This document shows, piece by piece, positions 14,497 to 34,721 of a DNA stretch of 64,000 bases (positions are counted from its first letter, which is position 1; each line of letters opens with the position of its first letter). Position numbers and translations under genes: made by a program. The stretch lies in NCBI GenBank assembly GCA_020279385.1, contig GCA_020279385.1_4762.2; one strand, given 5' to 3'. Under the pieces are notes generated by a model. It did no database searches. It was given only the letters and a program-made list of their open reading frames with translations, and was not told the DNA's origin. The DNA comes from a phage.

Positions 14497-14511
14497 TAGT
14501 GAGGTGAATTA

Positions 14512-16172: not shown

Positions 16173-16183
16173 TGTTTGTTCAA

Positions 16184-16211: not shown

Positions 16212-16219
16212 ATTGGGTG

Positions 16220-16248
16220 TTGATAATCGGATCTTGCCATAGCATAAT
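16220..16248 (+). promoter_or_regulatory. sigma70-type promoter (TTGATA-17-CATAAT)
   Basis: Followed by leader cgcacatcgaaacggagga and ATG 16273. Confidence 0.6.
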
Positions 16249-16272
16249 ACGCACATCGAAACGGAGGAACAT

Positions 16273-16491: not shown

Positions 16492-16498
16492 AAAGTAG

Positions 16499-16527
16499 TT
16501 GACACTGAATAACGGGGGTAGTAATAT
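16499..16527 (+). promoter_or_regulatory. PeSL-like promoter cassette (TTGACA-17-TAATAT) with hairpin spanning -10
   Basis: Inverted repeat GGGGGTA...TACCCCC around -10; leader catcgaaacgaaacaaaggagaatcaaa; near-identical copy at 16780. Confidence 0.7.
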
Positions 16528-16560
16528 ACCCCCATCGAAACGAAACAAAGGAGAATCAAA

Positions 16561-16779
16561 ATGAAATTTACTTGCACCGACTCTATCAGCAAACACTTTG
16601 TAGTAGGAGAAGTATACGAATCTACTACCATTCGCCAGCGTGACCTGATGGGTCGCCTTTACAATCAGCCAGTATTCATTATTGGTGAAGAATTGTTCTA
16701 CATTGAAAACCGTCCGTGGGTTGCTTTCAATAAACGAGGACGCAAGGTAGCAAAATTCGAACTTGTCATTAAAAAGTAG
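16561..16779 (+). CDS. hypothetical protein (72 aa)
   Basis: ATG after conserved leader. Confidence 0.5.
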   Translation: MKFTCTDSISKHFVVGEVYESTTIRQRDLMGRLYNQPVFIIGEELFYIENRPWVAFNKRGRKVAKFELVIKK

Positions 16780-16808
16780 TTGACAGCATGAAACGGGGGT
16801 AGTAATAT
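16780..16808 (+). promoter_or_regulatory. PeSL-like promoter cassette (TTGACA-17-TAATAT), copy of 16499 cassette
   Basis: Same hairpin/-10 and leader as the 16499 cassette. Confidence 0.7.
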
Positions 16809-16849
16809 ACCCCCATCGAAACGAAACTAACTTACTAAGGAGTATCAAG

Positions 16850-17248
16850 ATGATTAAATTTCAAACTCGCAAAGACGTTCTGGACTTCGTTAAAGTTTTC
16901 GGTTACGCTGCATTGCAACATGCAATGGACAAAATGACCATCTCCCCAGATCAGACTATGCTGATCCGTATGGTTAAAGCAACCGCCTACAAAAACGACA
17001 TTACCCTCTCAGAAATCAACGACGGTAATAATGTCCGCGAGGTAATTGTTTCTTTCGAATCACCGAAAATTGGCGGTTTTCATACCACGATGTTAGGTGA
17101 AATCACTGTCACTGTATACGGGCAAGGTGGCGGAGTGTTTACCGTCAAAGAAGCAATGGAAAACGGAACACTGAACAAAGAAAAACTGGAATTTGTCCTG
17201 AAAATCATCAAGGAGCGTAACGAAGCTCGCGATATTCTGGAAAGTTAA
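16850..17248 (+). CDS. hypothetical protein (132 aa)
   Basis: ATG after cassette leader and RBS AAGGAG. Confidence 0.5.
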   Translation: MIKFQTRKDVLDFVKVFGYAALQHAMDKMTISPDQTMLIRMVKATAYKNDITLSEINDGNNVREVIVSFESPKIGGFHTTMLGEITVTVYGQGGGVFTVKEAMENGTLNKEKLEFVLKIIKERNEARDILES

Positions 17249-17255
17249 TAAGGTG

Positions 17256-17280
17256 GGCGGGAGAAATCCCGCCTTTGTTG
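17256..17280 (+). terminator. rho-independent terminator
   Basis: GGCGGGA-GAAA-TCCCGCC hairpin followed by TTTGTTG. Confidence 0.7.
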
Positions 17281-17298
17281 TGACGTGAGGAAAGGATA

Positions 17299-17760
17299 AT
17301 GATTAATGAGCTAATAGAAAACTATGGATTCGTTAAATATTCATGTTTAGAGTGTAAAGATGGTGATGTGATTCTACCGCCTCAGAAGAACCGTTTAAAT
17401 GTTCTTTACGCTATTGTGGTTGATGATGAACTGGTATATATTGGTCAGACTGTTAATCTCAGAAAGCGGATCAATTATTACCGGACTAGCATTAACAGAC
17501 AGACACCAACGGCGGATACTCGCAAGAGTAAGAATATTCATAAGGCGCTAGAGGAAGGGAAGACAGTAACATTCTATTACCGCCAGTGCTTTGAGTTATA
17601 TATTGAGAATCCAACGGGTAAAGATATTATAAGCACTGCCGATATCGAAGAACCTGTTTTGATCACCAAATTTAAACCAGAATGGAACACAAATTATGTC
17701 AACAAAAGAAAACAACAAAAAAGTTTTAGCATTGTTCAAAAATCTGATGGCACTATGTGA
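17299..17760 (+). CDS. denA: endonuclease II (GIY-YIG nuclease)
   Basis: VLYAIVVDDELVYIGQTVNLRKRINYYRT GIY-YIG core closely resembles T4 EndoII; lies between nrdB and rnlA as in T4. Confidence 0.8.
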   Translation: MINELIENYGFVKYSCLECKDGDVILPPQKNRLNVLYAIVVDDELVYIGQTVNLRKRINYYRTSINRQTPTADTRKSKNIHKALEEGKTVTFYYRQCFELYIENPTGKDIISTADIEEPVLITKFKPEWNTNYVNKRKQQKSFSIVQKSDGTM

Positions 17761-22680: not shown

Positions 22681-24163
22681 TATCATTAACCAGCTTGCAG
22701 CGACCGACAAAACATCGCTGAAAGAAAAGATTCTGAAAGAATCCGCGAGCAATGAAACGCTGAAAGAATGCTTTTATCTGGCATATTGCAAACAGGTTAC
22801 GTTTGGCGTAAAGAAATACGATAAACCATCGCGCTATTCGTCTGTATTGTCTTTATCCGGTGCATTACAGGTCTTTAAAAATAAACTTGCCACGCGTCAA
22901 GTAACTGGTAATGCAGCATTACAGCTAGTTACCGATACTCTGACTTGCTTGTCAGAGGATGATGCTAAAGTTGCAATGATGGTCCTGAATCGTGATCTGG
23001 AATGCGGTTGTTCCGCCACCACTGCAAACAAGGTATGGAAGAAACTGATCCCCCAGCAGCCGTGTCACCTTGCATCGTCATATTCTGATAAGGCTATTGC
23101 TAATATCAAGTATCCGGCGTATGCACAACTTAAAAGCGATGGTGCTCGTGGTATGGCTGATATTGACGGGGAAACATTAGCAATCTATACCCGTTCAGGT
23201 AATACCTATCAGGGACTTGATGATTTGTTTGCGGTTTTAGAGCGTCTACGAGGCCGTGGAATTGTTCTAGATGGCGAATTGGTATATATGCCTACCCTTT
23301 CGCAAACACCAGCGCAGAACTTCGTTGAGAGCGTTTATGATGGTACTCTGTCATGGATATTTGAAGAAGAGGAAATGCCATTAACGCCAGTAGCGGAAGC
23401 AGTAAAAGAATCCGTTGTTGCAGACCGTCAGACCGGAAATGGTATCCTCAACAAATCACTTAAAGGAACTATTCCAAAAGAAGAAGCCCAATGTATTGTT
23501 TATACTGTCTGGGATGTTATCGACCGTGATGTGTATTACGGAAACGAGAAAGCAACGAAGCAATATAAAGATCGATTCGAAGAACTAAAACAGATTGTTG
23601 AAGAACTTAACGATCCTCGTGTTCAGATAATCGAAAATACTGTAGTTAACAATATCGATGAAGCTCGCGAAGTATATCATCGCTATGTAAACATGGGCTT
23701 AGAAGGTATTATCCTTAAAAATTTACATGGTGTATTTGAAGATCGTCGCAGTAAAGATCAGGTTAAATTTAAAGAAGTGATTGACTTCGACGCTGAAATT
23801 GTTGATGTATATCCGCATAGTAAAGATCCTAATAAGGTAGGCGGTTTTACTGTCCGTAGTGCGTGCGGACGAATGATGACTAACACCGGATCGGGATTAA
23901 CCGACACCACAACCGAAAAAGGTGATGATGGTATTGAACGTGTAATTCCGTTCGATCGTCGAAATGAACTCGACCGAGAAATGTTATGGGCTGACCGTCA
24001 TAACCTGATTGGAAAAGTCATTGAGATGACATGCAACGGGTACATTCGCAGCAAATCACGTAAAGAAGATGAACCGGAGTTCTCTTTATTTCTCCCGATC
24101 ATCAAACGTATTCGCTACGACAAGACCACTGCAAATACAGTAAAAGAGGTATTCGATGTGTGA
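22667..24163 (+). CDS. 30: ATP-dependent DNA ligase
   Basis: ~498 aa; KSDGAR adenylation lysine motif, LDGELVY, NGILNKSLKGTIPKEEAQC, GLEGIILKN, KFKEVID, GGF; colinear with T4 DNA ligase; ATG 22667 after RBS GAGGTG. Confidence 0.9.
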   Translation: MSILNIINQLAATDKTSLKEKILKESASNETLKECFYLAYCKQVTFGVKKYDKPSRYSSVLSLSGALQVFKNKLATRQVTGNAALQLVTDTLTCLSEDDAKVAMMVLNRDLECGCSATTANKVWKKLIPQQPCHLASSYSDKAIANIKYPAYAQLKSDGARGMADIDGETLAIYTRSGNTYQGLDDLFAVLERLRGRGIVLDGELVYMPTLSQTPAQNFVESVYDGTLSWIFEEEEMPLTPVAEAVKESVVADRQTGNGILNKSLKGTIPKEEAQCIVYTVWDVIDRDVYYGNEKATKQYKDRFEELKQIVEELNDPRVQIIENTVVNNIDEAREVYHRYVNMGLEGIILKNLHGVFEDRRSKDQVKFKEVIDFDAEIVDVYPHSKDPNKVGGFTVRSACGRMMTNTGSGLTDTTTEKGDDGIERVIPFDRRNELDREMLWADRHNLIGKVIEMTCNGYIRSKSRKEDEPEFSLFLPIIKRIRYDKTTANTVKEVFDV

Positions 24164-24632
24164 TAATGAAGGGGCGAAAGCCCCTAAACCTAAAAAATTG
24201 TCAAAGAAAGAGCAACGCCAGATCCTGAAAATGAAATACGGTGGACGTTGTGCCTATTGTGGCGAGGAACTAGGGGATCGCTGGCACGCAGACCACATCA
24301 AACCAGTATTGCGACGCTCAAAAGTAGTCTATGATGAAAATGGACGAATTGCCCGTAATGATGATGGATCGTGGAAGTATAAGGTTGTAGGAATGCATAA
24401 ACCGGAACATGATATACTTGATAACATGAATCCGTCGTGTGTGCAATGCAATCTTTATAAAAGCTGTATGGGCTTAGAATACTGGCGTAAGTGTATACGC
24501 GAGAACTTCCAGAAATACATTCAGCGCAATATGGGGTTGCGAGCGGCTAAACGCTTTGGCTTACTGTCAATCCACGACCAGCCAGTAGAATTTTATTTCG
24601 AAAAGTATGAGCGCGAGCATCAAGAAAAATAA
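24156..24632 (+). CDS. HNH endonuclease
   Basis: 158 aa; CAYCGEELGDRWHADHIKPV...NMNPSCVQCNLYK HNH zinc-finger nuclease motif; start overlaps ligase stop. Confidence 0.75.
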   Translation: MCDNEGAKAPKPKKLSKKEQRQILKMKYGGRCAYCGEELGDRWHADHIKPVLRRSKVVYDENGRIARNDDGSWKYKVVGMHKPEHDILDNMNPSCVQCNLYKSCMGLEYWRKCIRENFQKYIQRNMGLRAAKRFGLLSIHDQPVEFYFEKYEREHQEK

Positions 24633-24645
24633 TTCAAAAAAGTTG

Positions 24646-24674
24646 TTGACAGGGGATCACCGATCCCCTATACT
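24646..24674 (+). promoter_or_regulatory. PeSL-like promoter cassette (TTGACA-17-TATACT)
   Basis: Palindromic spacer GGGGATCACCGATCCCC; leader acacataccgaaacgaactaggagaatcaa. Confidence 0.7.
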
Positions 24675-24708
24675 ACACACATACCGAAACGAACTAGGAG
24701 AATCAATT

Positions 24709-24888
24709 ATGAACTTCAACGAAATCATCGCTAAAATCCGCTACAACGAAGAAACCATTGAACTGATGCAAAACAATATCACCAATGGTTATATGATTGC
24801 AGCGTCACAAGAAATCATTGATTTGACGGTAGCAGAAAATGCTCAGTTGAAACATCAACTTTCAACGGCTGGCGTGATTGTTATGTAA
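24709..24888 (+). CDS. hypothetical small protein (59 aa)
   Basis: ATG 24709 after cassette leader; track start 24607 precedes the promoter. Confidence 0.45.
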   Translation: MNFNEIIAKIRYNEETIELMQNNITNGYMIAASQEIIDLTVAENAQLKHQLSTAGVIVM

Positions 24889-24905
24889 TAAAGAGAGGTG
24901 ACTAA

Positions 24906-25208
24906 ATGGCAAAAGTTAAGGTAGGCGAGGTCTTCAAAATGGAAGACCACACCGTGGAAGAGATGAAAGGCGCAGTATTGAAAGTAACTAATTCAATGTG
25001 TCGTAGTGTGCTTTACATCAACTTTATAGACGGTGATGTGTGGTGGGCTAGCGATAGCGATAAATGGGATATCAAGTTCTACAAAGGTCATACTCACTGG
25101 TTAGGAACAGAGGATGTTGTAGAAGTTCTGGCGGTTGATGTTATGCCAGGCGAGATCGAAAGTCTTAGCGGAACCGCAAAAGAAGCATTGACACGCCATT
25201 TTGTGTGA
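24906..25208 (+). CDS. small protein, HxHW-LAVDV paralog family member
   Basis: 100 aa; C-terminal KGHTHWLGTEDVVEVLAVDV motif shared with five neighbouring ORFs. Confidence 0.5.
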   Translation: MAKVKVGEVFKMEDHTVEEMKGAVLKVTNSMCRSVLYINFIDGDVWWASDSDKWDIKFYKGHTHWLGTEDVVEVLAVDVMPGEIESLSGTAKEALTRHFV

Positions 25209-25214
25209 TATAAT
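25188..25214 (+). promoter_or_regulatory. possible sigma70-like promoter (TTGACA-15-TATAAT)
   Basis: TTGACA 25188-25193, TATAAT 25209-25214; short spacer, followed by hairpin GGGAG...CTCCC. Confidence 0.35.
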
Positions 25215-25265
25215 ATAACAATCATTGGGAGGGGTAATACTCTCCCACAAATTGAGGATAATATT

Positions 25266-25457
25266 ATGTGTGGTCTTAAAATGGTTGCTGAATATAAGCG
25301 AACTGGTAATATTATTATGTATCGACGCAATGCCAACGAAGACTGGAAACCTTCCAACCGCATTAAATCCATCCAGACGTTTATGAATAACATCAAAGAA
25401 AACCTTTTCGTTAAGCGTGTTGGCGCTGAACATTGGGAAGTTTACGAAGCTGTATAA
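25266..25457 (+). CDS. hypothetical small protein (63 aa)
   Basis: RBS GAGGA + ATG. Confidence 0.45.
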   Translation: MCGLKMVAEYKRTGNIIMYRRNANEDWKPSNRIKSIQTFMNNIKENLFVKRVGAEHWEVYEAV

Positions 25458-25473
25458 TTTTGAGGAAAATATT

Positions 25474-25776
25474 ATGGAACGTACCAATTTGTTTGTAACC
25501 GAACCTTTCGTTGAAGGAAACAAGAACCTTGCTAATACGGTTATTCTTTACGAAGATTGGATCTTTTACATCGATGAGAATTTAGATGTATATTGTCGTC
25601 CAACCCCAAATGACTCATTCTATATCGAAGAAAACGATACCCATAATCATTGGTATGACGGAAACGACGAAACCGATCTTGCTATTGTTCTCGAATCCGG
25701 CGTAGAATCGGAACATGCCGATGAAGTAGCAGACAAATTTATGAAATACGCATATAAAGATAAAGTTGAAGAATAA
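25474..25776 (+). CDS. small protein, HxHW paralog family member
   Basis: 100 aa; WIFYIDENLDVY and THNHWYDG...LAIVLE motifs; ATG 25474 (track start 25417 is inside previous gene). Confidence 0.5.
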   Translation: MERTNLFVTEPFVEGNKNLANTVILYEDWIFYIDENLDVYCRPTPNDSFYIEENDTHNHWYDGNDETDLAIVLESGVESEHADEVADKFMKYAYKDKVEE

Positions 25777-25784
25777 AAAAGTTG

Positions 25785-25813
25785 TTGACAGGGGATCGGT
25801 GATCCCCTATAAT
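25785..25813 (+). promoter_or_regulatory. PeSL-like promoter cassette (TTGACA-17-TATAAT)
   Basis: Palindromic spacer GGGGATCGGTGATCCCC; near-identical to cassettes at 29045 and 31421. Confidence 0.75.
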
Positions 25814-25846
25814 GCACACATACCAACGAGATATAGGAGAATCAAA

Positions 25847-26014
25847 ATGTTCCAGACTAAAGCAGAATGCGAAGCATACATTGTAGCAAACCACGGTGAA
25901 GACTACCTGAAATTCGATATCGTAGTAGCACAGAAGATCACCGGAATGGTTGCAAAATATCTAGGTGTTAAAGAAGGTTACTATCCAAGCAACGCACCAG
26001 AAATTAACAAATAA
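25847..26014 (+). CDS. hypothetical small protein (55 aa), paralog of the 29107 ORF
   Basis: MFQTKAECEAYIVANHGEDYLKFDIVVAQK... about 85% identical to the 29107 product. Confidence 0.5.
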   Translation: MFQTKAECEAYIVANHGEDYLKFDIVVAQKITGMVAKYLGVKEGYYPSNAPEINK

Positions 26015-26017
26015 TAG

Positions 26018-26046
26018 TTGACAATGATTAAAGGGAGTAGTAAGAT
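26018..26046 (+). promoter_or_regulatory. PeSL-like promoter cassette (TTGACA-17-TAAGAT)
   Basis: Hairpin GGGAGTA...TACTCCC spans -10; leader catcaagacaacaaacggagaatcaaa. Confidence 0.6.
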
Positions 26047-26078
26047 ACTCCCATCAAGACAACAAACGGAGAATCAAA

Positions 26079-26258
26079 ATGAAAGCTATCGAAGTTCAGA
26101 AGTACATGGAACTCATCATTGAAGGTAAAGCACATACAGTATTGACTACCAACGTAGGATATGATAAAAATGTGCATATGCTGGTAGACAATATCGGCTG
26201 GATGAAGTTTAATCCTAATGAGAATGTACAAGCTCAAGAAATGACCATCCCTTTCTAA
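26079..26258 (+). CDS. hypothetical small protein (59 aa)
   Basis: ATG after cassette leader; below track cutoff. Confidence 0.4.
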   Translation: MKAIEVQKYMELIIEGKAHTVLTTNVGYDKNVHMLVDNIGWMKFNPNENVQAQEMTIPF

Positions 26259-26270
26259 GAGGAATATATT

Positions 26271-26549
26271 ATGATGCGAATTACTGCAACGCTGGATAAG
26301 ACACACAAAGAAAGATTTTTCGGTATGATCTTAAAAACGCCGATTTTCGATAATTACCTTTATGTTGACTATGAAGGCCATATTAGCTATAAATGTAAAA
26401 ATGATATTCGTGATTCCTTTGGTGATAAATCACAAGCTGATATTCACGATCATTGGTGGACCTTCGACGAACCTTTACGGATTATCGCAGTTGATGTAAA
26501 AACAATAAAAGAAGCTGATAAGGTAGTTAACGATTATGAGCAAATTTAA
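26271..26549 (+). CDS. small protein, HxHW-LAVDV paralog family member
   Basis: 92 aa; YLYVDYEGHISY and IHDHWWTFDEPLRIIAVDV. Confidence 0.5.
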   Translation: MMRITATLDKTHKERFFGMILKTPIFDNYLYVDYEGHISYKCKNDIRDSFGDKSQADIHDHWWTFDEPLRIIAVDVKTIKEADKVVNDYEQI

Positions 26550-26745
26550 AGACTATAAAGCATATCAACAGATCCTGCGAGTATACGCACCAGAGTTCGC
26601 CGAAAAGATGATGGAAGATGCATCAAAATGCCCGTCCTTTTCTGGAAACAAAAACCATTATTCGACTGGTATTGTGTCATGGAAAGAAACCGCATATACT
26701 CAACAATGGATAGATGTGTTTTCAAAAACTCTTGAGTGGTGTTAA
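26536..26745 (+). CDS. hypothetical small protein (69 aa), tandem paralog A
   Basis: MSKFKDYKAYQ... shares N-terminus and Cys/Trp pattern with next ORF. Confidence 0.5.
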   Translation: MSKFKDYKAYQQILRVYAPEFAEKMMEDASKCPSFSGNKNHYSTGIVSWKETAYTQQWIDVFSKTLEWC

Positions 26746-26747
26746 TT

Positions 26748-26963
26748 ATGAGCAAATTTAAAGATTATCGAGCATATAAAGCGATCTGCGATATATTCGA
26801 TGAAAAGACCGCTCATGAAATGATGGAAGATGCAGAACAATATGAATCATTCGTCAATTCCAAAGATTGCACAGTAAACGGGATTGTGTGCTGGAAAGAT
26901 ACAAAGTATGAAGAAAAATGGATTACCGTGTATTACGGAGAACTAGAATATGAAATTAACTAA
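26748..26963 (+). CDS. hypothetical small protein (71 aa), tandem paralog B
   Basis: MSKFKDYRAYK...; ATG 26748. Confidence 0.5.
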   Translation: MSKFKDYRAYKAICDIFDEKTAHEMMEDAEQYESFVNSKDCTVNGIVCWKDTKYEEKWITVYYGELEYEIN

Positions 26964-27270
26964 AAAGATTTTCCCAGAATTGCGTAACTGTCTGTTATTG
27001 GTTACTGAATATAAGCCGTATACGATCTACTTGTATGTTGATGAAAATCTGAAAATCCGTTACTATGATTATACGTCTCCAGTGATGAAATCATTTGCTC
27101 ACTCGATAGCAAATAACTGTATGAATCACAATCATTGGGTATCAGAAACGGATGACGATGCGTCAGAAGTTGTAGTGGTTGCATGGAATCTATCACCAGC
27201 GGAAGCAGATCAAGCACGCATTAAGCATTATGCGAAAAACAATTGGTTTGACCTTATAAGTGAGGACTAA
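26950..27270 (+). CDS. small protein, HxHW paralog family member
   Basis: 106 aa; IYLYVDENLKIRYYDY and NHNHWVSE...VVVVAWN. Confidence 0.5.
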   Translation: MKLTKKIFPELRNCLLLVTEYKPYTIYLYVDENLKIRYYDYTSPVMKSFAHSIANNCMNHNHWVSETDDDASEVVVVAWNLSPAEADQARIKHYAKNNWFDLISED

Positions 27271-27274
27271 TATT

Positions 27275-27553
27275 ATGTTCAAAGTAGGTGATAAGTTTAT
27301 TCTTAGTCGTGATATTCTCCCTAATCTGAAAGGTTGTATCATCAATCCTAGTAAAAATTCATGGTTTTATCTGTTTATCGACGACAAACTGAATGTACGC
27401 GCAGAATATAAAGAAGGTCTTCGTACTGGTCTAGGTTTCTTTCACGATCATGATCATAGCCATTGGTTAAACGGTGGATTCGAAGCAACGGTGCTAGCGG
27501 TTGACGTGACCTACACAAACATCATAGAAAAATATCAAAAAATTATTTTATAA
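27275..27553 (+). CDS. small protein, HxHW-LAVDV paralog family member
   Basis: 92 aa; WFYLFIDDKLNV and HDHSHWLNGGFEATVLAVDV; ATG 27275 with RBS GTGAGGA. Confidence 0.5.
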   Translation: MFKVGDKFILSRDILPNLKGCIINPSKNSWFYLFIDDKLNVRAEYKEGLRTGLGFFHDHDHSHWLNGGFEATVLAVDVTYTNIIEKYQKIIL

Positions 27554-27559
27554 AAAGTG

Positions 27560-27588
27560 TTGACACCGGATCGGGGATATAGCATAAT
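27560..27588 (+). promoter_or_regulatory. PeSL-like promoter cassette (TTGACA-17-CATAAT)
   Basis: Hairpin GGGGATAT...ATATCCCC spans -10; leader catcgaaacgagataca...aggagaatcaaa. Confidence 0.7.
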
Positions 27589-27634
27589 ATCCCCATCGAA
27601 ACGAGATACACTTTCTAACTAGGAGAATCAAATT

Positions 27635-27922
27635 ATGGCATACATTACTATCACTCTGAAAGTTAACAAATTTGCTCACGCTGCACACGAAACAGACAAT
27701 GCAATCCGTAACAACAAGTTCGCACGTCTGGTACGCGATGCAGTAGCTAAAGAGTTCAACTTCAAATTTGCAGACGGTAAAGTTATCACTAAATGGACTC
27801 ATGACGGAGAAACTAAAGTAGAACTTGCTGATAACTTCGCAAATCAGGAATATGCACACCGTCGCATTAATGAAATTATCAGCGATGAACTCTACTACGG
27901 TGTACAGGAAGGACTGTTTTAA
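27635..27922 (+). CDS. hypothetical protein (95 aa)
   Basis: ATG after cassette. Confidence 0.5.
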   Translation: MAYITITLKVNKFAHAAHETDNAIRNNKFARLVRDAVAKEFNFKFADGKVITKWTHDGETKVELADNFANQEYAHRRINEIISDELYYGVQEGLF

Positions 27923-27927
27923 TATAC

Positions 27928-27952
27928 GGGGCGTTAAGCCCCACCCCTTTTC
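27928..27952 (+). terminator. rho-independent terminator
   Basis: GGGGC-GTTAA-GCCCC hairpin then ACCCCTTTTCAT; same hairpin recurs at 31705. Confidence 0.65.
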
Positions 27953-27975
27953 ATCCAACTATTGAGGATAATACT

Positions 27976-28284
27976 ATGAAAGATAATATCTTTGAATTTA
28001 CCCGCGAAAATCTCCCAATGTTCCGAAAGTCTCTGCTTAAACTAGAGAACAGCAATTACAACGTATATTTTTACATCACCGAAGACCTAGAGATCCTTTA
28101 CGCAGATTATCCAGGTCCGATCCGTACCTTCGAAGAAGCATCGCAGTATAAAAATGTTCACGGTCATGAGCACTGGTTACGAGAAAACCCAGGTCGCAAG
28201 AAAGCACGCGTTAAAGTGTTGGCGATTGACATAACACCAGCATACGCCGACCGGATTGCACTGAATGATTATTTGTCTAAATGA
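27976..28284 (+). CDS. small protein, HxHW-LAxD paralog family member
   Basis: 102 aa; VYFYITEDLEILYADY and HGHEHWL...KVLAIDI. Confidence 0.5.
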   Translation: MKDNIFEFTRENLPMFRKSLLKLENSNYNVYFYITEDLEILYADYPGPIRTFEEASQYKNVHGHEHWLRENPGRKKARVKVLAIDITPAYADRIALNDYLSK

Positions 28285-28292
28285 TTTCATTA

Positions 28293-28320
28293 GCCGACCT
28301 TAGTGTCGGCTTTTTTATTT
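28293..28320 (+). terminator. rho-independent terminator
   Basis: GCCGAC-CTTAGT-GTCGGC hairpin followed by TTTTTTATTT. Confidence 0.8.
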
Positions 28321-28339
28321 CCAAAAATTAAAAAAGTTG

Positions 28340-28368
28340 TTGACACCTGATCACGCCTATAGCACAAT
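28340..28368 (+). promoter_or_regulatory. PeSL-like promoter cassette (TTGACA-17-CACAAT)
   Basis: Same architecture and leader (acacatcgaaacgagataccacttaggagaatcaaa); -10 slightly degenerate. Confidence 0.55.
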
Positions 28369-28408
28369 ACACACATCGAAACGAGATACCACTTAGGAGA
28401 ATCAAACA

Positions 28409-28678
28409 ATGGCACTGACTAAAACCACTACCAACTTTGCAAAACGTCACGGCTTCGACCTTGAAATCAATAGCTTTAACGATTACACCCTTCTGTGTGT
28501 ATATGAAATCGAAAATGATTGCGAGTGGATGTTCAGCTATCGCGTAAACGAAGACGGATCTTTCACTTGGAACGGAAATATCTATCTTGCACAGGAAGTA
28601 AAAGAAGAACTTCCGGCGACTATCAAAGATGAGAAACATTTACGTCAAGTTTTAAAATTTATTTCTGAAAATATCTAA
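28409..28678 (+). CDS. hypothetical protein (89 aa)
   Basis: ATG after cassette. Confidence 0.5.
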   Translation: MALTKTTTNFAKRHGFDLEINSFNDYTLLCVYEIENDCEWMFSYRVNEDGSFTWNGNIYLAQEVKEELPATIKDEKHLRQVLKFISENI

Positions 28679-28686
28679 AAAAGTTG

Positions 28687-28715
28687 TTGACACCAAAGTA
28701 AGAACATAGCATAAT
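28687..28715 (+). promoter_or_regulatory. PeSL-like promoter cassette (TTGACA-17-CATAAT)
   Basis: Leader acacataccgaaacgaactggagaatcaaa. Confidence 0.65.
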
Positions 28716-28748
28716 ACACACATACCGAAACGAACTGGAGAATCAAAA

Positions 28749-29030
28749 ATGAAATTCATCAAAGCAACCGAAATCCTGAAAAACAAAGAAGCATACATCG
28801 GAAACATCGTTGGTATGAACATTCGCGGCGCTGGTAGCCAGTGGACCAAACTGGTTGATGTTAAAGCTAAAGGCGATAAAATTGAGTTCACTGTAAAAAT
28901 GCTTACTCATAACGCACATATGGGTATCAAGACAAAAACGATGGCCGCAGATAAAAGCATCAACTATCAAGATCTGGGCGATTGGTTGAACTGGTGCAAA
29001 ATGCACAACATCGAAACTAATCACGAATAA
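28749..29030 (+). CDS. hypothetical protein (93 aa)
   Basis: ATG after cassette. Confidence 0.5.
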   Translation: MKFIKATEILKNKEAYIGNIVGMNIRGAGSQWTKLVDVKAKGDKIEFTVKMLTHNAHMGIKTKTMAADKSINYQDLGDWLNWCKMHNIETNHE

Positions 29031-29044
29031 TTTTAAAAAAGTTG

Positions 29045-29073
29045 TTGACGGGGATCGGGAGATCCCCTATAAT
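29045..29073 (+). promoter_or_regulatory. PeSL-like promoter cassette (TTGACG-17-TATAAT)
   Basis: Palindromic spacer GGGATCGGGAGATCCCC; copy of the 25785 cassette. Confidence 0.7.
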
Positions 29074-29106
29074 ACACACATAACGAAACGAAATAGGAGA
29101 ATCAAA

Positions 29107-29274
29107 ATGTTCGAGACTAAAGCAGCATGTGAAGCATATATCATTGAAACCCACGGCGAAGATTATCTGAAATTTGACATTGTAGTAGCACAGAAGATTG
29201 TAGGGATGGTTGCGAAATACCTCGGAGTTAAAGAAGGTTACTATCCTAGCAACGCACCAGAAATTAACAAATAA
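29107..29274 (+). CDS. hypothetical small protein (55 aa), paralog of the 25847 ORF
   Basis: MFETKAACEAYIIETHGEDYLKFDIVVAQK...; below track cutoff. Confidence 0.5.
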   Translation: MFETKAACEAYIIETHGEDYLKFDIVVAQKIVGMVAKYLGVKEGYYPSNAPEINK

Positions 29275-29288
29275 TTTTATAAAAAGTG

Positions 29289-29317
29289 TTGACAGGGGAG
29301 GATAACTCCCCTACAAT
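29289..29317 (+). promoter_or_regulatory. PeSL-like promoter cassette (TTGACA-17-TACAAT)
   Basis: Palindromic spacer GGGGAGGATAACTCCCC; leader caaccatcaagacgagataccacttaggagaatcaaa. Confidence 0.65.
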
Positions 29318-29357
29318 ACAACCATCAAGACGAGATACCACTTAGGAGAATCAAACA

Positions 29358-29609
29358 ATGGCTAACATCGAAACCGCAAAGAAAATCGCTAAAGACCTGA
29401 ACGTTAAAGGCTTCCGTAAACTGAAATTACAGCGTGTACGCTACACCATCGGCAAACAGTGCTCTTTCATGAGCGAAGAAGTTGCTAACAGCCTCATTGA
29501 TAACCTGATTGCGGCTGGCTGGGAAGTTGCGGATCTGAAAACTTGCCGCGAACTGGCTAACAAAGGTCTTTTAGATTCTGTTACTATCAAACCAATGGGG
29601 GCAGCGTGA
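29358..29609 (+). CDS. hypothetical protein (83 aa)
   Basis: Starts MANIE, sharing its first 16 nt with the 31486 ORF. Confidence 0.5.
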   Translation: MANIETAKKIAKDLNVKGFRKLKLQRVRYTIGKQCSFMSEEVANSLIDNLIAAGWEVADLKTCRELANKGLLDSVTIKPMGAA

Positions 29610-29851
29610 AAAGAAAATTAATTAAACGCAATAAGGAATTTCTTAATAACTGCATTAAGGCCGCTAATGGTTGGCCTTTGTTCCTCTTCCTTTATGATTG
29701 GTATTCTAAACAATCGGTAGAGGAAACACGACACTATAAGAAGATCAGAAAAGAATCATATACAAAACAAGGCCGCATTAACGGACTTTACTTAATGTGG
29801 CACGGCAAAGAACCTTCTAAAATCTGTGTTGGATTAAAGGGGCGTATATGA
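29606..29851 (+). CDS. hypothetical basic protein (81 aa)
   Basis: GTG start overlapping previous stop; Lys/Arg-rich; uncertain. Confidence 0.35.
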   Translation: MKRKLIKRNKEFLNNCIKAANGWPLFLFLYDWYSKQSVEETRHYKKIRKESYTKQGRINGLYLMWHGKEPSKICVGLKGRI

Positions 29852-30564
29852 AACAAAAATTAATATTCTGCAACTTTGACGGATCGGGGATAATGGGGCT
29901 AGAATGGGCTAAAGCAGGTCATAAGGTGATCTGCTTTAATGCTGACGATGGCGACCACGGCACATACAAAAAGTATAATACCCGATTTGAACATCCAAAC
30001 ATTACCTATGTAAACACATGGATTGATTTGAACTGGCTGGAAAGAGCAATGGACCTTGAATGGGGGAAACCGGATATTATCTTTGCATTCCCACCGTGCA
30101 CCAATTTAGCTGTTAGTGGCGCTGCACACTTTGAACGAAAGAAACGAGAACAAGGACCATTGATTCAAGTTCATGATGTAAGGGCAGCTAAAATAACCGC
30201 TTATTTGGGTGAATGGCTAGGAGTTCCCTACATGATAGAGAATCCTGTAAGCGTTATCTCTAGCATGTGGCGTAAGCCTGATTATATGTTCCATCCGTGG
30301 GAATATGGTGGTTATTTGCCGGAAGATGATAAGCATCCTACGTTTCCTGAGTATATTGCCGCCCGTGATATGTACCCGAAAAAGACTTGCTTATGGACCG
30401 GACAAGGCTTTATGATGCCAGAAAAGAAACCTTTGCAGATTAATAAAGGGTACAGTAAACAGCATTCTAAGCTAGGCGGGAAAGGAACGAAAACAAAGAC
30501 TATAAGGTCACTTACCCCGCGAGGATTCGCAAAGGCAGTATTTGAAGCCAATAAGGATCTATGA
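29848..30564 (+). CDS. C5-cytosine methyltransferase-like protein (compact, no obvious target-recognition domain)
   Basis: 238 aa; motif I-like IFCNFDGSGIMG, motif IV-like FPPCTNLAVSG (Pro-Cys), motif VI-like ENPVSV, motif X-like RSLTPRGFAKAVF. Confidence 0.5.
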   Translation: MKQKLIFCNFDGSGIMGLEWAKAGHKVICFNADDGDHGTYKKYNTRFEHPNITYVNTWIDLNWLERAMDLEWGKPDIIFAFPPCTNLAVSGAAHFERKKREQGPLIQVHDVRAAKITAYLGEWLGVPYMIENPVSVISSMWRKPDYMFHPWEYGGYLPEDDKHPTFPEYIAARDMYPKKTCLWTGQGFMMPEKKPLQINKGYSKQHSKLGGKGTKTKTIRSLTPRGFAKAVFEANKDL

Positions 30565-30893
30565 TGAGATTGTTTAAGTATTCGCTAACGTCAAATTACG
30601 ATAAACAAGGTCATTGCATCCGTTGCCCTGATTGTCATAGCCATAACATCGAAAGCAAGATCACCGATCATATTGATGGACTTTGGTCGCCAGCAAGTGA
30701 AATAGAATACTATTGCTCTGATTGTGGAATTGTAGTAGCATATTGGGCATACGGATCATATGATCCATACTTCCAGATGGGAGAGCGTTCAATCCCTGCG
30801 CTCATCTGGAGAATTAAGAACAATATCCGCCATTCATGGGATGAGTTCTTAAAAGATATTGATTTACGTGATGATCCATTCAGGAGACTATAA
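30561..30893 (+). CDS. Zn-ribbon protein (110 aa)
   Basis: CIRCPDCHSH ... CSDCG; two CxxC pairs; translationally coupled to flanking genes. Confidence 0.5.
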   Translation: MMRLFKYSLTSNYDKQGHCIRCPDCHSHNIESKITDHIDGLWSPASEIEYYCSDCGIVVAYWAYGSYDPYFQMGERSIPALIWRIKNNIRHSWDEFLKDIDLRDDPFRRL

Positions 30894-30894
30894 C

Positions 30895-31413
30895 ATGAAC
30901 CGTTTAACGCCTAAACGCCGCTACTATACCAATACTAAAAACTTTGTTATCTCTGTTTACGAAGCATGGTTAGAAGATGGCTATATCAACATGAACCCAG
31001 ATTATCAGCGTCCTTTAGTATGGGACACCGAAAACAAACGTATGTTTATTGAAAACCTGATTAATGATTTTCCGGTTGGTGCTATCGCAATGGCTAAGAT
31101 TGATGATGGCTCTCGCTATGAGATCGAAATCGTGGACGGTAAACAGCGTTTAAACGCAATATTCTCCTTTATGAAGGATGAGTTTAGCATTGCCGGTAAT
31201 GATGATTCTATGTTGTATTACAGTGATTTTACGCCAGCAGAAAAGCGACGTTTCCGAAATCTCGGACTACCCGCGATCATGATGGAAGAGAGCACACGAG
31301 AAGACCGATTAGAGTATTTCTACAAAACAAACTTTTTCGGTGTGCCTCAATCGGAAGAACATCGCCAGCATGTGATTGCCCTATTGCAAGATGAGCAATT
31401 AAAAAATAACTAA
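30895..31413 (+). CDS. DUF262 / ParB-like domain protein (DGQQR-type motif)
   Basis: ~173 aa; NPDYQRPLVW and EIVDGKQRLNAIFSF resemble the DUF262 DGQQR signature; ATG 30895 with RBS CAGGAGAC. Confidence 0.55.
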   Translation: MNRLTPKRRYYTNTKNFVISVYEAWLEDGYINMNPDYQRPLVWDTENKRMFIENLINDFPVGAIAMAKIDDGSRYEIEIVDGKQRLNAIFSFMKDEFSIAGNDDSMLYYSDFTPAEKRRFRNLGLPAIMMEESTREDRLEYFYKTNFFGVPQSEEHRQHVIALLQDEQLKNN

Positions 31414-31420
31414 AAAGTTG

Positions 31421-31449
31421 TTGACAGGGGATCGGTGATCCCCTATAAT
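31421..31449 (+). promoter_or_regulatory. PeSL-like promoter cassette (TTGACA-17-TATAAT)
   Basis: Spacer GGGGATCGGTGATCCCC identical to the 25785 cassette. Confidence 0.75.
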
Positions 31450-31485
31450 GCACACATACCGAAACGAACTACTAAGGAGTATCAA

Positions 31486-31698
31486 ATGGCTAACATCGAA
31501 ATCATCATTACCGACGTAACTTATGACCGCATTAACGAAATCGGTACTGCATTACTGGAAGATGGAACAACTCGTACCATCAACTACGCAGAATACGTTG
31601 AAATGCGTGGTTGTATTAAACGAGTAGGAAAATATACCCTGATTGAAAAAGACTATTCAGGATACACCTTAGAGCAATTGCTTGATGGTGCATTATAA
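31486..31698 (+). CDS. hypothetical protein (70 aa)
   Basis: ATG 31486 after cassette; starts MANIE like the 29358 ORF; track start 31435 lies in the promoter. Confidence 0.5.
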   Translation: MANIEIIITDVTYDRINEIGTALLEDGTTRTINYAEYVEMRGCIKRVGKYTLIEKDYSGYTLEQLLDGAL

Positions 31699-31704
31699 TA
31701 AAAA

Positions 31705-31728
31705 GGGGGCGTTAAGCCCCGTTTTCAT
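31705..31728 (+). terminator. rho-independent terminator
   Basis: GGGGGC-GTTAA-GCCCC hairpin followed by GTTTTCAT. Confidence 0.7.
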
Positions 31729-31766
31729 AAATATAGGTTTATAGGTTATCAACTAGAGGATATAAA

Positions 31767-33818
31767 ATGTTTAACTTAGAAATCGACGATCTAATGATTG
31801 AATCTTTCGAGAAATGGCTGTTGACGGAAGAGGAAGAAAACTTTGGCAGTATTGCTCCTGTACAGTGCTTAAAGCCTAAGCAGAATCCTAAACAGCTTTT
31901 TGCAGTACAGACACGCGATAAAGATGTGATTGTCCGTCTTTGCAACTTCACCAACAAAACACCTAAAATCATTCGTATGGGCGACAAGACCGCACATGTT
32001 GTACTGTGCGAAATGAACAAAAGCGGTCGTATTGTACAGCTTAAAAATGGTCTAGGCGATAACCCGATTGCAGTCATGGCAAGTGCTTTTGATGTGGTTA
32101 TGGAAACAGCCCGTAAAGCGCAATTAGACGCTGTTATGTTCCGTTTTAACGTATCCCGCATGAAAGGTAAGACCGAACTGATTAAGCGCGTTATAGAGCG
32201 TTTGGTGCGTCGTACACCGAAGTTTGAAGTATTCCAGCAGGAAGTAATGACCAGCAAAAAGATCGCTTTAGTTGTTGTCAAGCGTCGCGGGATAGCGATT
32301 GATAAGATTAAAGGGATTAAACTTGATGAATCCTTGTTCACTAAAGTAGAAAGTGATTTAGGTGATCGCTGGGTATCTAAGGCTACTGGTGAATCTCTGA
32401 CTAAAGATGAAGCGTATGCGGCTAGTCTTGTGTCAGAAGAAGAACGAAACGCGGAAGCAGAACAACGCGTAGCGGCTAAATCTCGTTTGACTAAAGAAGA
32501 AATGCTGAAAACTCAAGCGACCTATAACAGCGACTATGTGAATCATCCAGAAAAAATTAATCTTAAACCGGAAGAAGATATCACCGAAGCCGAACCTAAG
32601 AAACAGTTTAATACTCTGATTGACCGTCAAGCCTTAGAACGTTCAACCGCCCGTTCTCTGAATGACTGGACAAGTGATATTATCACTCGCTATGGTTTCA
32701 TGCGTACTATTTTTGAAAGCGAAGCCGATGCAAAATACGCAGTAAGCGAACTGGTAAAAGTTCAGGATCAATATGATCCGTTGTCTGCGGAAGTTATCGC
32801 AGCATCAATCAAACGCTTAAAAGAAATCATGAGCGAGGAAGTATTCGAAAACAAGATCACCGCCCTGGCAATGGATCGAGTAGACCAGTCTATGCCAGCA
32901 GATGTAAAAGCTGAAATGCTGCGTAGTCATATCACCCAGATTAAAACCGATGCCCTACGTAATGTTGCTTCCGGTATGTTTGAAGCAATTGCTAGCAACA
33001 TGGGTGAAATGATGGCAGATATTGATCTTGATCTGCCAGGTGCGGAAGGTTTTGTGTTGAGCGAATATGCGGATGCAGCATACATCAATATGAACAACTT
33101 CCTAACCGACCGTAAGCTGGAAGAATTTGATGGTATCGCAGATCCAGAAGAATTGGTCAAGATGTGCGATGCACTGGATAATGCCTTCTCTAACTATGGT
33201 GTTAAACTTGATCCGGGTACTATTCTGTATCGTGGTATGGACTTCCGGTCTCAAATGTGGGAAACTGCACGTAAGCAAAAAGCGTTTTACTTTAAAAACT
33301 ATGTGAGCACTTCCCTTGCACCTAACATTTTTGGCGGCTGGAATGCAAACGTGGCTAGTGCCGTTGCTGGTGTTGATTCTATGGCTGGCTCTCGCGGTGA
33401 AGGTGGCGCTAATGTTGCTTTCTCCATTGCTGGCGCGGAAAACATCCCTGTATTGCCAGTAGGTAACAAAGCATTTGCTTACAAAGAATGCGAGATTTTA
33501 CTTCCTCGCGGTGTTGTGTTATCCTTTGATACGGTAACTCGTGCTACGGCATCGACGGATTCACAAGAAACTTATTACATTGAGGCACATATTATGAACA
33601 AAAATGAACTGGCAGCATTACAAGAATCTGGCGAGATGATCGCGGACGGTGATGCATTCATCCGTGAAGGTGTTGTTAAACCTGCTTCTGACCTGTCTTT
33701 CTCCAGCTTTATTACCGAAGCTAAAACCGAACGTAAGAAAGCAGATAAGGCAACTCTACGTCAGCTTATCGCTGATCTGGTATCTGTAGACGCAATGCCA
33801 GATAAATTTAAAATGTAA
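31767..33818 (+). CDS. alt: ADP-ribosyltransferase Alt
   Basis: 683 aa (T4 Alt ~682 aa); C-terminal R-S-ExE ART triad (LYRGMDF, YVSTSL, KECEILLPRG); position next to ligase region and gene 54 as in T4. Confidence 0.75.
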   Translation: MFNLEIDDLMIESFEKWLLTEEEENFGSIAPVQCLKPKQNPKQLFAVQTRDKDVIVRLCNFTNKTPKIIRMGDKTAHVVLCEMNKSGRIVQLKNGLGDNPIAVMASAFDVVMETARKAQLDAVMFRFNVSRMKGKTELIKRVIERLVRRTPKFEVFQQEVMTSKKIALVVVKRRGIAIDKIKGIKLDESLFTKVESDLGDRWVSKATGESLTKDEAYAASLVSEEERNAEAEQRVAAKSRLTKEEMLKTQATYNSDYVNHPEKINLKPEEDITEAEPKKQFNTLIDRQALERSTARSLNDWTSDIITRYGFMRTIFESEADAKYAVSELVKVQDQYDPLSAEVIAASIKRLKEIMSEEVFENKITALAMDRVDQSMPADVKAEMLRSHITQIKTDALRNVASGMFEAIASNMGEMMADIDLDLPGAEGFVLSEYADAAYINMNNFLTDRKLEEFDGIADPEELVKMCDALDNAFSNYGVKLDPGTILYRGMDFRSQMWETARKQKAFYFKNYVSTSLAPNIFGGWNANVASAVAGVDSMAGSRGEGGANVAFSIAGAENIPVLPVGNKAFAYKECEILLPRGVVLSFDTVTRATASTDSQETYYIEAHIMNKNELAALQESGEMIADGDAFIREGVVKPASDLSFSSFITEAKTERKKADKATLRQLIADLVSVDAMPDKFKM

Positions 33819-33896: not shown

Positions 33897-34721
33897 ATGT
33901 TCAAACAATTACAGGATTTTCGTCTTTCAGAAGAATCACGCGAATCAATGATGGAACGTATGGACAATTATATTGAAACATATGACATTGAGGGGATTAA
34001 TGGTTACATGATCACTGAGATGATCAGCGATCAGATTAACTTTGATGATTATGTGAAGGTTATCCGCTTCCTTGAGCGTGAGACACAAGATTATGGATTT
34101 GTCAAGAAAATCATTAATGTGATGTATGAAGTACACTCCGAAGACTTTGGAGATAATGTATTCAAACATTACAAACATAACAACATAACCCCAGCAGAAT
34201 ATAATGCAATCTGTGATTATGTATCTGAACAATACGAATGGGTAAATGGTGCTCTCTTAGGGGAAGAAGACATGACCGATGAGATATCAGAGATTGTCGA
34301 TTTGATGGATTGCGTCATGGATAAAACCGAAAAGTTAAACGGTACTCTTTATCGCGGTCAACATCTTGACATTCAGACAATAGAGCGCATCATTGAAGAT
34401 AAGGAGTTTACCTTTAAAAACTTTGTATCGACCAGCATGACACCGATCATCTTTGGAGGATGGCTATCAAACAGCACTAGCCTTTATTGTGAGAATCGAT
34501 ATGAATCAATGACCGGAAAGATGCAACATTCTTGTAATGTATCATGGGTAATTGACGTAAAAGATCATAAAGGTTTTGTTGTTGGGTCAATTGCATGGAA
34601 CCCTTGCGAATGTGAAGTAATTTTACCGCGCGGGACTTGCGTCAAGGTAAACGACGTAGTAGAATCTTTCGGCGATGAGAATCGTAGACAATTTACAATT
34701 TTCGGTGAGGTGACTAAATGA
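33897..34721 (+). CDS. Alt/Mod-like ADP-ribosyltransferase (second ART paralog)
   Basis: 274 aa; R-S-ExE triad (TLYRGQHL, FVSTSMTPIIFGGW, CECEVILPRG) parallels Alt C-terminus. Confidence 0.65.
   Translation: MFKQLQDFRLSEESRESMMERMDNYIETYDIEGINGYMITEMISDQINFDDYVKVIRFLERETQDYGFVKKIINVMYEVHSEDFGDNVFKHYKHNNITPAEYNAICDYVSEQYEWVNGALLGEEDMTDEISEIVDLMDCVMDKTEKLNGTLYRGQHLDIQTIERIIEDKEFTFKNFVSTSMTPIIFGGWLSNSTSLYCENRYESMTGKMQHSCNVSWVIDVKDHKGFVVGSIAWNPCECEVILPRGTCVKVNDVVESFGDENRRQFTIFGEVTK

Follow-up and report, generated by a model that had tools for sequence, protein, structure and literature searches.

Promoter-early stem-loops (PeSLs) were described in the phages RB49 and phi1 (Arbiol, Comeau, Kutateladze, Adamia & Krisch, 2010, Genome Biol Evol 2:140, PMC2839356; Comeau, Arbiol & Krisch, 2014, PMC4122927). 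Approximately 50 PeSLs are found per genome, mostly in hyperplastic regions, and the stem-loop takes one of five positions relative to the promoter. Strong promoter activity (~13,000 Miller units) was measured for PeSL206/205, the promoter of PeSL193/192 was also tested, and terminator activity was measured for the stem-loop of PeSL211/210. Recombination between PeSLs was proposed to excise and insert cassettes of ORFan genes, and mini-circles with ORF191-194, ORF192-193, and ORF210 (ORF, open reading frame) were detected by inverse PCR (Arbiol et al., 2010). Here, we analyzed a 64,000-nt stretch of phage DNA (assembly GCA_020279385.1, contig GCA_020279385.1_4762.2; hereafter, the window), in which an earlier model annotation made from the letters alone, the sequence-only reading, had noted a duplicated gene-plus-promoter cassette at 25785-29274. 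Very probably, this pair represents an old duplication of a PeSL together with its ORF, which has been kept by purifying selection and is exchanged by general homologous recombination at PeSLs.

Judged by nucleotide similarity, the source phage is an RB49-like T4-type coliphage (myovirus) of the genus Krischvirus. The stretch 25400-29700 aligned over its full length with many Escherichia and Shigella Krischvirus phages at 94-96% identity, the best match being ELT4 (96.3%). A wider query (24100-31800) matched 59 Krischvirus records, with identities of 94-97% across the region, many of them in joined pieces with partial coverage, and the region is therefore highly mosaic. The flagged stretch belongs to hyperplastic region 3 (HPR3), equivalent to ORFs 185-212 of RB49 and phi1. 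It forms a string of small early genes, all on the plus strand and many of them preceded by a PeSL, bounded by the DNA ligase gp30 and an HNH endonuclease on one side and by the alt ADP-ribosyltransferase gene on the other. In the annotated regions compared, it is collinear with ORFs 185-213 of RB49, phi1, and GEC-3S, and the annotation of GEC-3S already marks a promoter ahead of many of the small ORFs.

A pair of 55-codon genes behind stem-loop promoters

The pair was recovered by a repeat finder and ungapped alignment as a 242-nt direct repeat with two copies (25774-26015 and 29034-29275), which are 84% identical and spaced by 3,260 bp (the intervening stretch plus one repeat copy). Each copy comprises a promoter of the sigma-70 type (its spacer includes a G/C stem-loop), a Shine-Dalgarno (SD) sequence, and a 55-codon ORF. 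In both copies the homology starts in an A-rich tract ahead of the -35 box and ends one base past the stop codon (TAAT; ...AACAAATAAT), beyond which differing promoter cassettes follow. The two ORFs, orthologous to ORF205 and ORF191 of RB49 (hereafter copies A and B), are identical at 143/168 nt (85%), and their products at 49/55 amino acids (aa; 89%, 6 residues differing). Hence the pair itself is genuine, and the value of ~85% previously given for the proteins is that of the nucleotide sequences. Identity is not confined to the promoter: it spans the whole coding sequence.

The 25 nucleotide differences between the ORFs include 18 synonymous and 7 non-synonymous ones, as estimated by the Nei-Gojobori method (non-synonymous divergence dN 0.055, synonymous divergence dS 0.94, omega 0.06), in agreement with the earlier remark that they fall mostly at synonymous positions. 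Both copies are under strong purifying selection, and both frames are intact in the window and in all 10 fetched two-copy genomes analyzed. An assembly artefact is excluded by the occurrence of both copies at the same, orthologous positions in 52/59 related records, which are independent genome records. The similarity of the proteins (BLASTP E-value 1e-34) and the codon-structured pattern of substitutions are also hard to reconcile with chance or sequencing error, so that an artefactual or accidental repeat has a vanishingly small probability. The 55-aa protein has no Pfam match, and its PHROG (phrog_8009) is of unknown function. Only 5 homolog clusters were obtained in a search of 5.8 billion proteins, and AlphaFold predicts a helical hairpin with low confidence (pLDDT 66).

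The palindromic promoters of the sequence-only reading are, by their sequence, PeSLs, which were described at these same loci (Arbiol et al., 2010). In a PeSL, an A-rich tract is followed by a sigma-70 promoter close to consensus (17-nt spacer), with a G/C-rich stem-loop inside it or adjacent to it, and then by a short leader and the SD block GGAGAATCAAA; all sequence-level defining features are present in both cassettes. Their G/C stems (7-8 bp) lie in the promoter spacer, the AT-rich tracts TAAAAAAGTTG and TTTTAAAAAAGTTG directly follow the upstream stop codons at 25776 and 29030, and GGAGAATCAAA(A)ATG stands ahead of both 55-aa ORFs of phrog_8009.

The promoters ahead of the pair thus belong to the PeSL class, but their likeness, described earlier as near-identity, is not specific to the pair. 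The 56-nt promoter core at 25784 is 93% identical to the core at 31420, which precedes an unrelated gene, vs. 86% to the core of its paralog at 29044; the latter is 88% identical to the core at 24645. For this reason, promoter similarity was rejected as proof of promoter-gene co-duplication, each core being at least as similar to another PeSL, and it reflects a genome-wide PeSL family. An even closer match links two unrelated genes, the homologs of ORF194 (28409) and ORF190 (29358), whose 5' untranslated regions are 100% identical: the sequences 28364-28411 and 29313-29360 coincide from just past the -10 box through ATGGC, whereas the promoter cores are 71% identical. PeSLs are therefore mosaics of exchangeable sub-segments, and these segments are shuffled independently of the ORFs. 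Sequence specific to the pair is limited to the SD-to-ATG stretch ATAGGAGAATCAAAATG and the ORF.

The second copy is not of recent origin. In the fetched two-copy genomes, the 205-position copy is 95-99% and the 191-position copy ~85% identical to the first copy of the window. Across 11 two-copy genomes, the mean dS is 0.088 among A copies and 0.107 among B copies, vs. 0.90 between A and B (dN 0.055), i.e., the paralog dS is about nine times the ortholog dS. The duplication, or the acquisition of the second copy, is thus old and precedes the diversity sampled within the genus by about one order of magnitude. A recent duplication and strong concerted evolution were both rejected, since the copies cluster by position, the dS between them is 0.90, and the conversion tracts described below are only short.

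The same divergence could also result if the second copy were a xenolog, that is, a diverged allele that came from another phage and entered a resident PeSL through recombination between PeSLs. With an A-B dS about nine times that of orthologs in the sampled genus, there is no sign of a recent event in situ, and the insertion of foreign cassettes via PeSLs is the published model. The gene family is, moreover, horizontally mobile. Outside the genus, a metagenomic protein in a non-Krischvirus context has 78% aa identity, and single-copy homologs with 66-68% aa identity occur in siphoviruses of E. coli and Salmonella (swi2, SeSz-2, and Pu29). Since these homologs sit in unrelated siphoviruses, the small 55-aa gene moves between phage groups. 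Nonetheless, each copy has its nearest known relative in the other (89% vs. at most 78% aa identity outside the genus). The SD-ATG stretch specific to the pair is common to both, their 3' ends are identical through the stop context, and both have fixed positions in 52/59 records. The greater closeness of the copies to each other than to any out-of-genus homolog favors duplication within the lineage, and we regard the xenolog as a possible but rather unlikely origin.

Single-copy homologs of the 55-aa protein span 44-68% aa identity when all siphovirus matches are taken together: swi2, SeSz-2, Pu29, Sasha (Salmonella), and PDP46 (E. coli). At the only siphovirus locus read, that of vB_EcoS_swi2 (locus positions 2501-2656), the homolog has a different, non-PeSL upstream region.

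Recombinants in related genomes and the mode of exchange

A blastn census with the 168-nt ORF yielded 113 places in 61 records. Two copies are present in 52/59 Krischvirus records and one copy in 7/59. The seven single-copy records form three classes, and junctions between cassettes, which the sequence-only reading had proposed to look for in related genomes, were found in Cognac, FL04, Brandy, UPWr_E1, JK32, and MIZ4.

The first class comprises Cognac and FL04, in which the ORF206 homolog is followed by one 168-nt ORF and the ORF190 homolog, the 3.26 kb between the copies and one copy being lost. The remaining cassette is a chimera in both phages. Cognac is 205-type across the flank, stem-loop, and leader and 191-type in the coding sequence from codon 3 on, so that the switch falls within 20 identical nucleotides (ATAGGAGAATCAAAATGTTC) reaching from the SD to codon 2. 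FL04 has a 205-type left stem arm joined to a 191-type loop, leader, and ORF. The difference in junction haplotypes and in other cassettes suggests that the two deletions are independent. In the second class (Brandy, UPWr_E1, and JK32), only ORF191 was lost, and the single PeSL left between ORF193 and ORF190 is chimeric, being of the 193/191 type through the -10 box and of the 191/190 type from the leader, with the switch just 3' of the -10 box. The third class includes MIZ4 and MIZ5, each with a single copy. In MIZ4, the one examined, the genes from ORF191 to ORF186 are absent, including a DNA methyltransferase, and the switch lies within AAAAAGTTGTTGAC, at the -35 box.

Exchange also extends into the genes. 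Tabulation of 25 sites diagnostic for copy A or B revealed contiguous runs of the other paralog's state in several genomes: the only copy of Brandy reads a...bbbbbb...a, A-type 3' ends were found in the B copies of MIZ2, W115, Sf20, G2494, and ECD7 and in the Cognac chimera, and a variant private to MIZ2 (CTT) is present in both of its copies. By their pattern, such runs are gene-conversion tracts inside the coding sequence. Natural deletions, chimeras, and conversion patches thus bear out the proposal that the gene-plus-promoter cassettes recombine.

On a larger scale, comparison of the window with 17 related loci (24.1-31.8 kb) gave 13 structural differences. Seven of them (7/13) lie in PeSLs, which make up ~12% of the sequence (rough binomial P 3e-4). 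A search of IMG/VR for more single-copy or recombinant genomes returned two loci only, one with both the length (164,706 bp) and the two-copy layout of ECD7; the other is described below.

Under the reading favored here, each cassette would function as an autonomous early transcription unit with a strong host-type promoter, its stem-loop attenuating read-through from upstream. The cassettes would at the same time serve as recombination substrates, every PeSL being a near-repeat of 70-90 nt to which the pair adds 168 nt at 85% identity. The very active homologous recombination of the phage would act on them to produce deletions, insertions, replacements, and conversion patches, and recombination between the two copies would remove the 3.26-kb interval entirely. 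As to the original duplication, unequal exchange between PeSLs or the re-insertion of an excised mini-circle at another PeSL may have produced it.

A different possibility, raised by Arbiol et al. (2010) together with a comparison to integrons, is site-specific exchange, in which a dedicated phage protein would recognize the GGGG...CCCC stem-loop and carry out integron-like excision and insertion. The structure of the stem-loop is conserved while its sequence varies, and both the FL04 junction and one published mini-circle junction are inside the stem-loop. The other junctions, however, are found at the -35 box (MIZ4), 3' of the -10 box (Brandy, UPWr_E1, and JK32), and between the SD and codon 2 (Cognac). 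Two promoter cassettes that have no stem-loop are still located at indel boundaries (28293-28387), and no integrase or recombinase beyond the T4-type machinery was reported for RB49 and phi1 (Arbiol et al., 2010). Because junctions scatter over the shared segments and conversion tracts run deep in the ORF, far from the stem-loops, a single site-specific cleavage point is disfavored. The distribution of junctions points to general rather than site-specific recombination, and site-specific exchange has, in our estimate, a very low probability.

Also improbable is a further proposal, according to which the pair is kept as a built-in switch bracketing the 3.26-kb block of eleven accessory early genes, or the stem-loops are recognized by a phage protein in an integrase-less cassette system. 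If the switch existed, excision of the block as a PeSL mini-circle, followed by its loss or re-capture, would occur at a measurable frequency per burst. Every lysate would contain both long and short genotypes, the short form being the one fixed in Cognac and FL04. Such behavior would amount to bet-hedging for host-specific accessory genes.

A number of observations weigh against an old duplication exchanged by homologous recombination at PeSLs. The direction and mechanism of the original duplication are beyond recovery at a dS of ~0.9, and import from a diverged relative would look identical to it. Two of the nine folded promoter cassettes, those at 28339 and 28686, have no stem-loop. Six of the 13 structural differences, including gene-internal replacements, lie outside PeSLs, and PeSLs are therefore not the only route of change. 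The Cognac and FL04 deletions might share an origin, followed by later conversion. Their crossover intervals were defined against present-day sequences and PeSLs are mosaic (the ORF191 copy of Skers already carries a 205-type leader), which makes the exact exchange points in these two phages uncertain. Promoter, terminator, and mini-circle activities are, for this phage, carried over by analogy from RB49 and phi1, the core sequence homologous to the published PeSLs being present in the window. Finally, the second IMG/VR locus, a metagenomic Krischvirus contig (UViG_3300045988_033703, locus positions 6590-6650; window positions 27476 and 29446), has a non-PeSL junction: ~1.97 kb (ORF198-ORF191) is absent, and ORF199, an H-x-H-W gene, is fused to ORF190 inside the coding sequence at an imperfect microhomology of ~7 nt (CCAT[T/C]GG). 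This deletion could be an assembly artefact.

The PeSL family, shared gene starts, and other features of the window

About 14 PeSL-type elements were identified in the window by a scan for GTTGAC with its context (Table 1). Seven sites within 24-34 kb match at least 11 of the 12 positions of TTGACA-17-TATAAT, and all seven are intergenic and on the plus strand. Seven of nine folded elements have a G/C stem of 7-8 bp (-13.8 to -19.4 kcal/mol) that lies in the spacer or overlaps the -10 box. Stem sequences vary with pairing kept (GGGGATC/GATCCCC, GGGGAG/CTCCCC, GGGAGTA/TACTCCC, and GCGGGGA/TCCCCGC). The commonest stem, GGGGATC-nnn-GATCCCC (24652-24668, 25791-25807, 29050-29066, and 31427-31443), contains two GATC (Dam) sites, one per arm. 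No known RNA families were found in 13-34 kb. Several elements mark the sites of gene insertions in other genomes: ORF210 (and ORF211) at the PeSL ahead of the ORF209 homolog, ORF195-196.1 at the promoter ahead of the ORF194 homolog (in RB49, Brandy, UPWr_E1, and MIZ2), and ORF186, present in many genomes, at the PeSL ahead of the ORF185 homolog.

The SD block GGAGAATCAAA occurs in 8 exact copies ahead of early ORFs on the plus strand, and the degenerate pattern GGAGRAYMRAA, which includes it, has 9 matches vs. 0.64 expected. GGAGAATCAAA matches 10/11 positions of GGAGRAYARAA, the consensus target of the RegB/S1 endoribonuclease in T4-type early mRNAs, and, like RegB sites, it is placed in the translation initiation regions of early genes. 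Unlike these sites, it has C at position 8, where A is strongly preferred. RB49 is among the T4-related phages with aligned RegB cleavage sites (Durand et al., 2006, PMC1702504). The resemblance suggests that the SD may double as a putative RegB/S1 cleavage site and that the cassettes may be built for RegB shut-off of early mRNAs.

The homologs of ORF190 and ORF185 were noted earlier to share their first 16 nt (ATGGCTAACATCGAAA), and cassette junctions were proposed to extend into the first codons. The shared start proved to be both non-random and fixed. Its sequence occurs exactly twice in the window, at these two ORF starts (~0.06 occurrences expected even with 2 mismatches), and (A)ATGGCTAACATCGAAA is invariant in both genes in 16/16 genomes examined. 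The identity is too long for chance and could be read as a recombination scar. The proposal about junctions held in part. Where homology allows, junctions can reach the first codons, as in the Cognac interval extending into codon 2. No recombinant with a junction at the 16-mer was present among the related genomes compared. In MIZ4, where ORF191 and the block separating the two 16-mer ORFs are missing, the junction is at the -35 box, away from the 16-mer.

It has only slightly less than an even chance, in our view, that the 16-mer is no scar at all and represents a convergent or selected translation-initiation sequence or a co-opted PeSL leader. Its invariance fits functional constraint, the embedded CATCGAAAC is a conserved PeSL leader motif, and several early ORFs here start with ATGGC. 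Apart from this start, the two proteins are unrelated and are assigned to separate PHROGs, and the leaders upstream of the ATG codons are 69% identical, with different SD spacing. Convergence must, however, account for 13 nt of identity beyond ATG (~4^-13 per pair, roughly 6e-5 over ~4,000 gene pairs), and the exchange interval of Cognac makes an ancient first-codon exchange mechanistically plausible. CATCGAAAC itself has 10 copies vs. 0.9 expected, 7 of them in PeSL leaders just past the -10 box. Two copies fall within genes: one (29009) at the 3' end of the ORF193 homolog's coding sequence and one (29366) in codons 3-5 of the ORF190 homolog. They may represent pieces of leader that were taken up into the ends of ORFs.

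Two tandem gene pairs indicated by the sequence-only reading (26536/26748 and 14156/14329) were also verified as real paralogs, with one PHROG for each pair; both PHROGs are of unknown function. In the latter pair, the stop codon of the first ORF overlaps the start codon of the second (TAATG).

Three other features of the window were observed. The nrdA-nrdB-denA stretch (13400-17300) is 100.0% identical to vB_EcoM_Skers, vs. 96.1% for the ligase-alt region (24100-31800), and the source genome is therefore a mosaic of Krischvirus lineages. The alt homolog (31767-33818) and the downstream ADP-ribosyltransferase gene (33897-34721) are paralogs (31% over 170 aa, E-value 1e-12), a relationship that annotations of related phages already show. 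Finally, a 42-nt unit is present five times in 1059-1700 (copies 62-74% identical to the reference one), at spacings of 108, 120, 252, and 120 nt, all multiples of 3. These look like internal repeats of a protein-coding gene, unrelated to the cassette pair.

Table 1. Coordinates of the duplicated cassettes, PeSL-type elements, and associated motifs and genes in the window. Promoter scores are matches to TTGACA-17-TATAAT.
Feature	Position	Strand	Details
Copy A, 55-aa ORF	25847..26014	+	RB49 ORF205 ortholog; phrog_8009; 99.4% nt identity to RB49 ORF205
Copy B, 55-aa ORF	29107..29274	+	RB49 ORF191 ortholog; phrog_8009
PeSL before copy A (RB49 'PeSL206/205')	25774..25846	+	promoter 12/12; -14.1 kcal/mol
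-35 box, TTGACA	25785-25790		part of PeSL before copy A
Stem-loop, GGGGATC-GGT-GATCCCC	25791-25807		part of PeSL before copy A
-10 box, TATAAT	25808-25813		part of PeSL before copy A
SD, GGAGAATCAAA	25836-25846		part of PeSL before copy A
PeSL before copy B (RB49 'PeSL193/191' position)	29031..29106	+	promoter 11/12; -14.9 kcal/mol; z -2.9
-35 box, TTGACG	29045-29050		part of PeSL before copy B
Stem-loop, GGGGATC-GGGA-GATCCCC			part of PeSL before copy B
-10 box, TATAAT	29068-29073		part of PeSL before copy B
SD, GGAGAATCAAA	29096-29106		part of PeSL before copy B
DNA between repeat blocks	26015..29033	+	RB49 ORF204-ORF193 homologs; 11 small ORFs, four further PeSLs
PeSL before ORF209 homolog (ATG 24709)	24633..24708	+	GGGGATC...GATCCCC subtype
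PeSL before ORF204 homolog	26015..26078	+	GGGAGTA...TACTCCC overlaps -10 box; -13.9 kcal/mol; z -4.4
PeSL before ORF198 homolog	27554..27634	+	stem-loop overlaps -10 box
Terminator and promoter before ORF194 homolog	28292..28408	+	intrinsic terminator 28292-28311, then promoter without stem-loop
Promoter cassette before ORF193 homolog	28679..28748	+	no stem-loop
PeSL before ORF190 homolog	29275..29357	+	stem GGGGAG...CTCCCC; -19.4 kcal/mol
PeSL before ORF185 homolog	31414..31485	+	core 93% identical to PeSL at 25784
PeSL-type elements, all	7845, 9070, 13928, 16498, 16779, 24645, 25784, 26017, 27559, 28339, 28686, 29044, 29288, 31420
GGAGAATCAAA copies	16550, 25836, 26068, 27622, 28396, 28737, 29096, 29345	+
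CATCGAAAC copies	7879, 9104, 12162, 16254, 16533, 16814, 27594, 28374, 29009, 29366
ORF190 homolog	29358..29609	+	83 aa; phrog_14908; starts with ATGGCTAACATCGAAA
ORF185 homolog	31486..31698	+	70 aa; phrog_10679; starts with ATGGCTAACATCGAAA
Tandem pair, ORF202/ORF201 homologs	26536..26963	+	26536-26745 and 26748-26963; 46% over 68 aa, E-value 4e-19; phrog_8471
Tandem pair, 57 and 55 aa	14156..14496	+	14156-14329 and 14329-14496; 40% aa identity, E-value 2e-13; phrog_5579

Comparison with known cassette systems

By analogy, the cassettes resemble two other systems. Like the morons of lambdoid phages (Hendrix et al., 2000, cited in Arbiol et al., 2010), they are small accessory genes with their own promoter and terminator between resident genes. 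The mobility of morons, however, is attributed to illegitimate recombination and not to their control elements. In the system studied here, the conserved promoter cassette would itself provide the homology, and each gene has the same orientation as its neighbors. With integron cassettes they share the arrangement in arrays of small promoter-served ORFs that can leave as circles and insert again at a conserved site. They differ in that each PeSL cassette has its own promoter, vs. one shared Pc in integrons, and no integrase or attC-type site was reported in RB49 and phi1 (Arbiol et al., 2010), no search for an integrase having been made here. Instead of the single crossover point of integrons, junctions were found at no fewer than four positions, with tracts inside the ORF.

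The closest system is that of the RB49 and phi1 PeSLs themselves, with which the locus shares the genus, the HPR3 region (ORFs 185-212), the anatomy of the elements, and the association of indels with them. The first cassette is the homolog of the promoter-tested PeSL206/205, and ORF191 lies within the published ORF191-194 mini-circle. The natural junction classes (-35 box/AT tract, loop, -10-to-ATG, and SD) match the crossover classes of the published mini-circles, and the reciprocal products of mini-circles, i.e., genomic deletions, are seen in the relatives compared here.

The 59 Krischvirus records, none of which existed in 2010, constitute a natural experiment for the PeSL model, comprising an ancient cassette pair, apparently two separately derived deletions, three other PeSL-to-PeSL deletions, and patchy conversion. 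The scatter of junctions favors homologous over site-specific recombination, a question left open by Arbiol et al. (2010). Strong purifying selection and the occurrence in siphoviruses make the 55-aa protein a reasonable candidate for functional study, and PeSL cassettes are recoverable from raw sequence alone.

Paralogs, gene duplication, and gene conversion are not mentioned in either PeSL paper (PMC2839356, PMC4122927), and no relevant earlier report of the ORF205/ORF191 paralogy emerged from a literature search. Relative to the published system, the type of element, its location, and its role in the shuffling of small early genes have been known since 2010 (Arbiol et al., 2010). The paralogy of ORF205 and ORF191 as a 242-bp direct repeat, the natural 3.26-kb deletions, the conversion tracts, and the scatter of junctions are the points added here.

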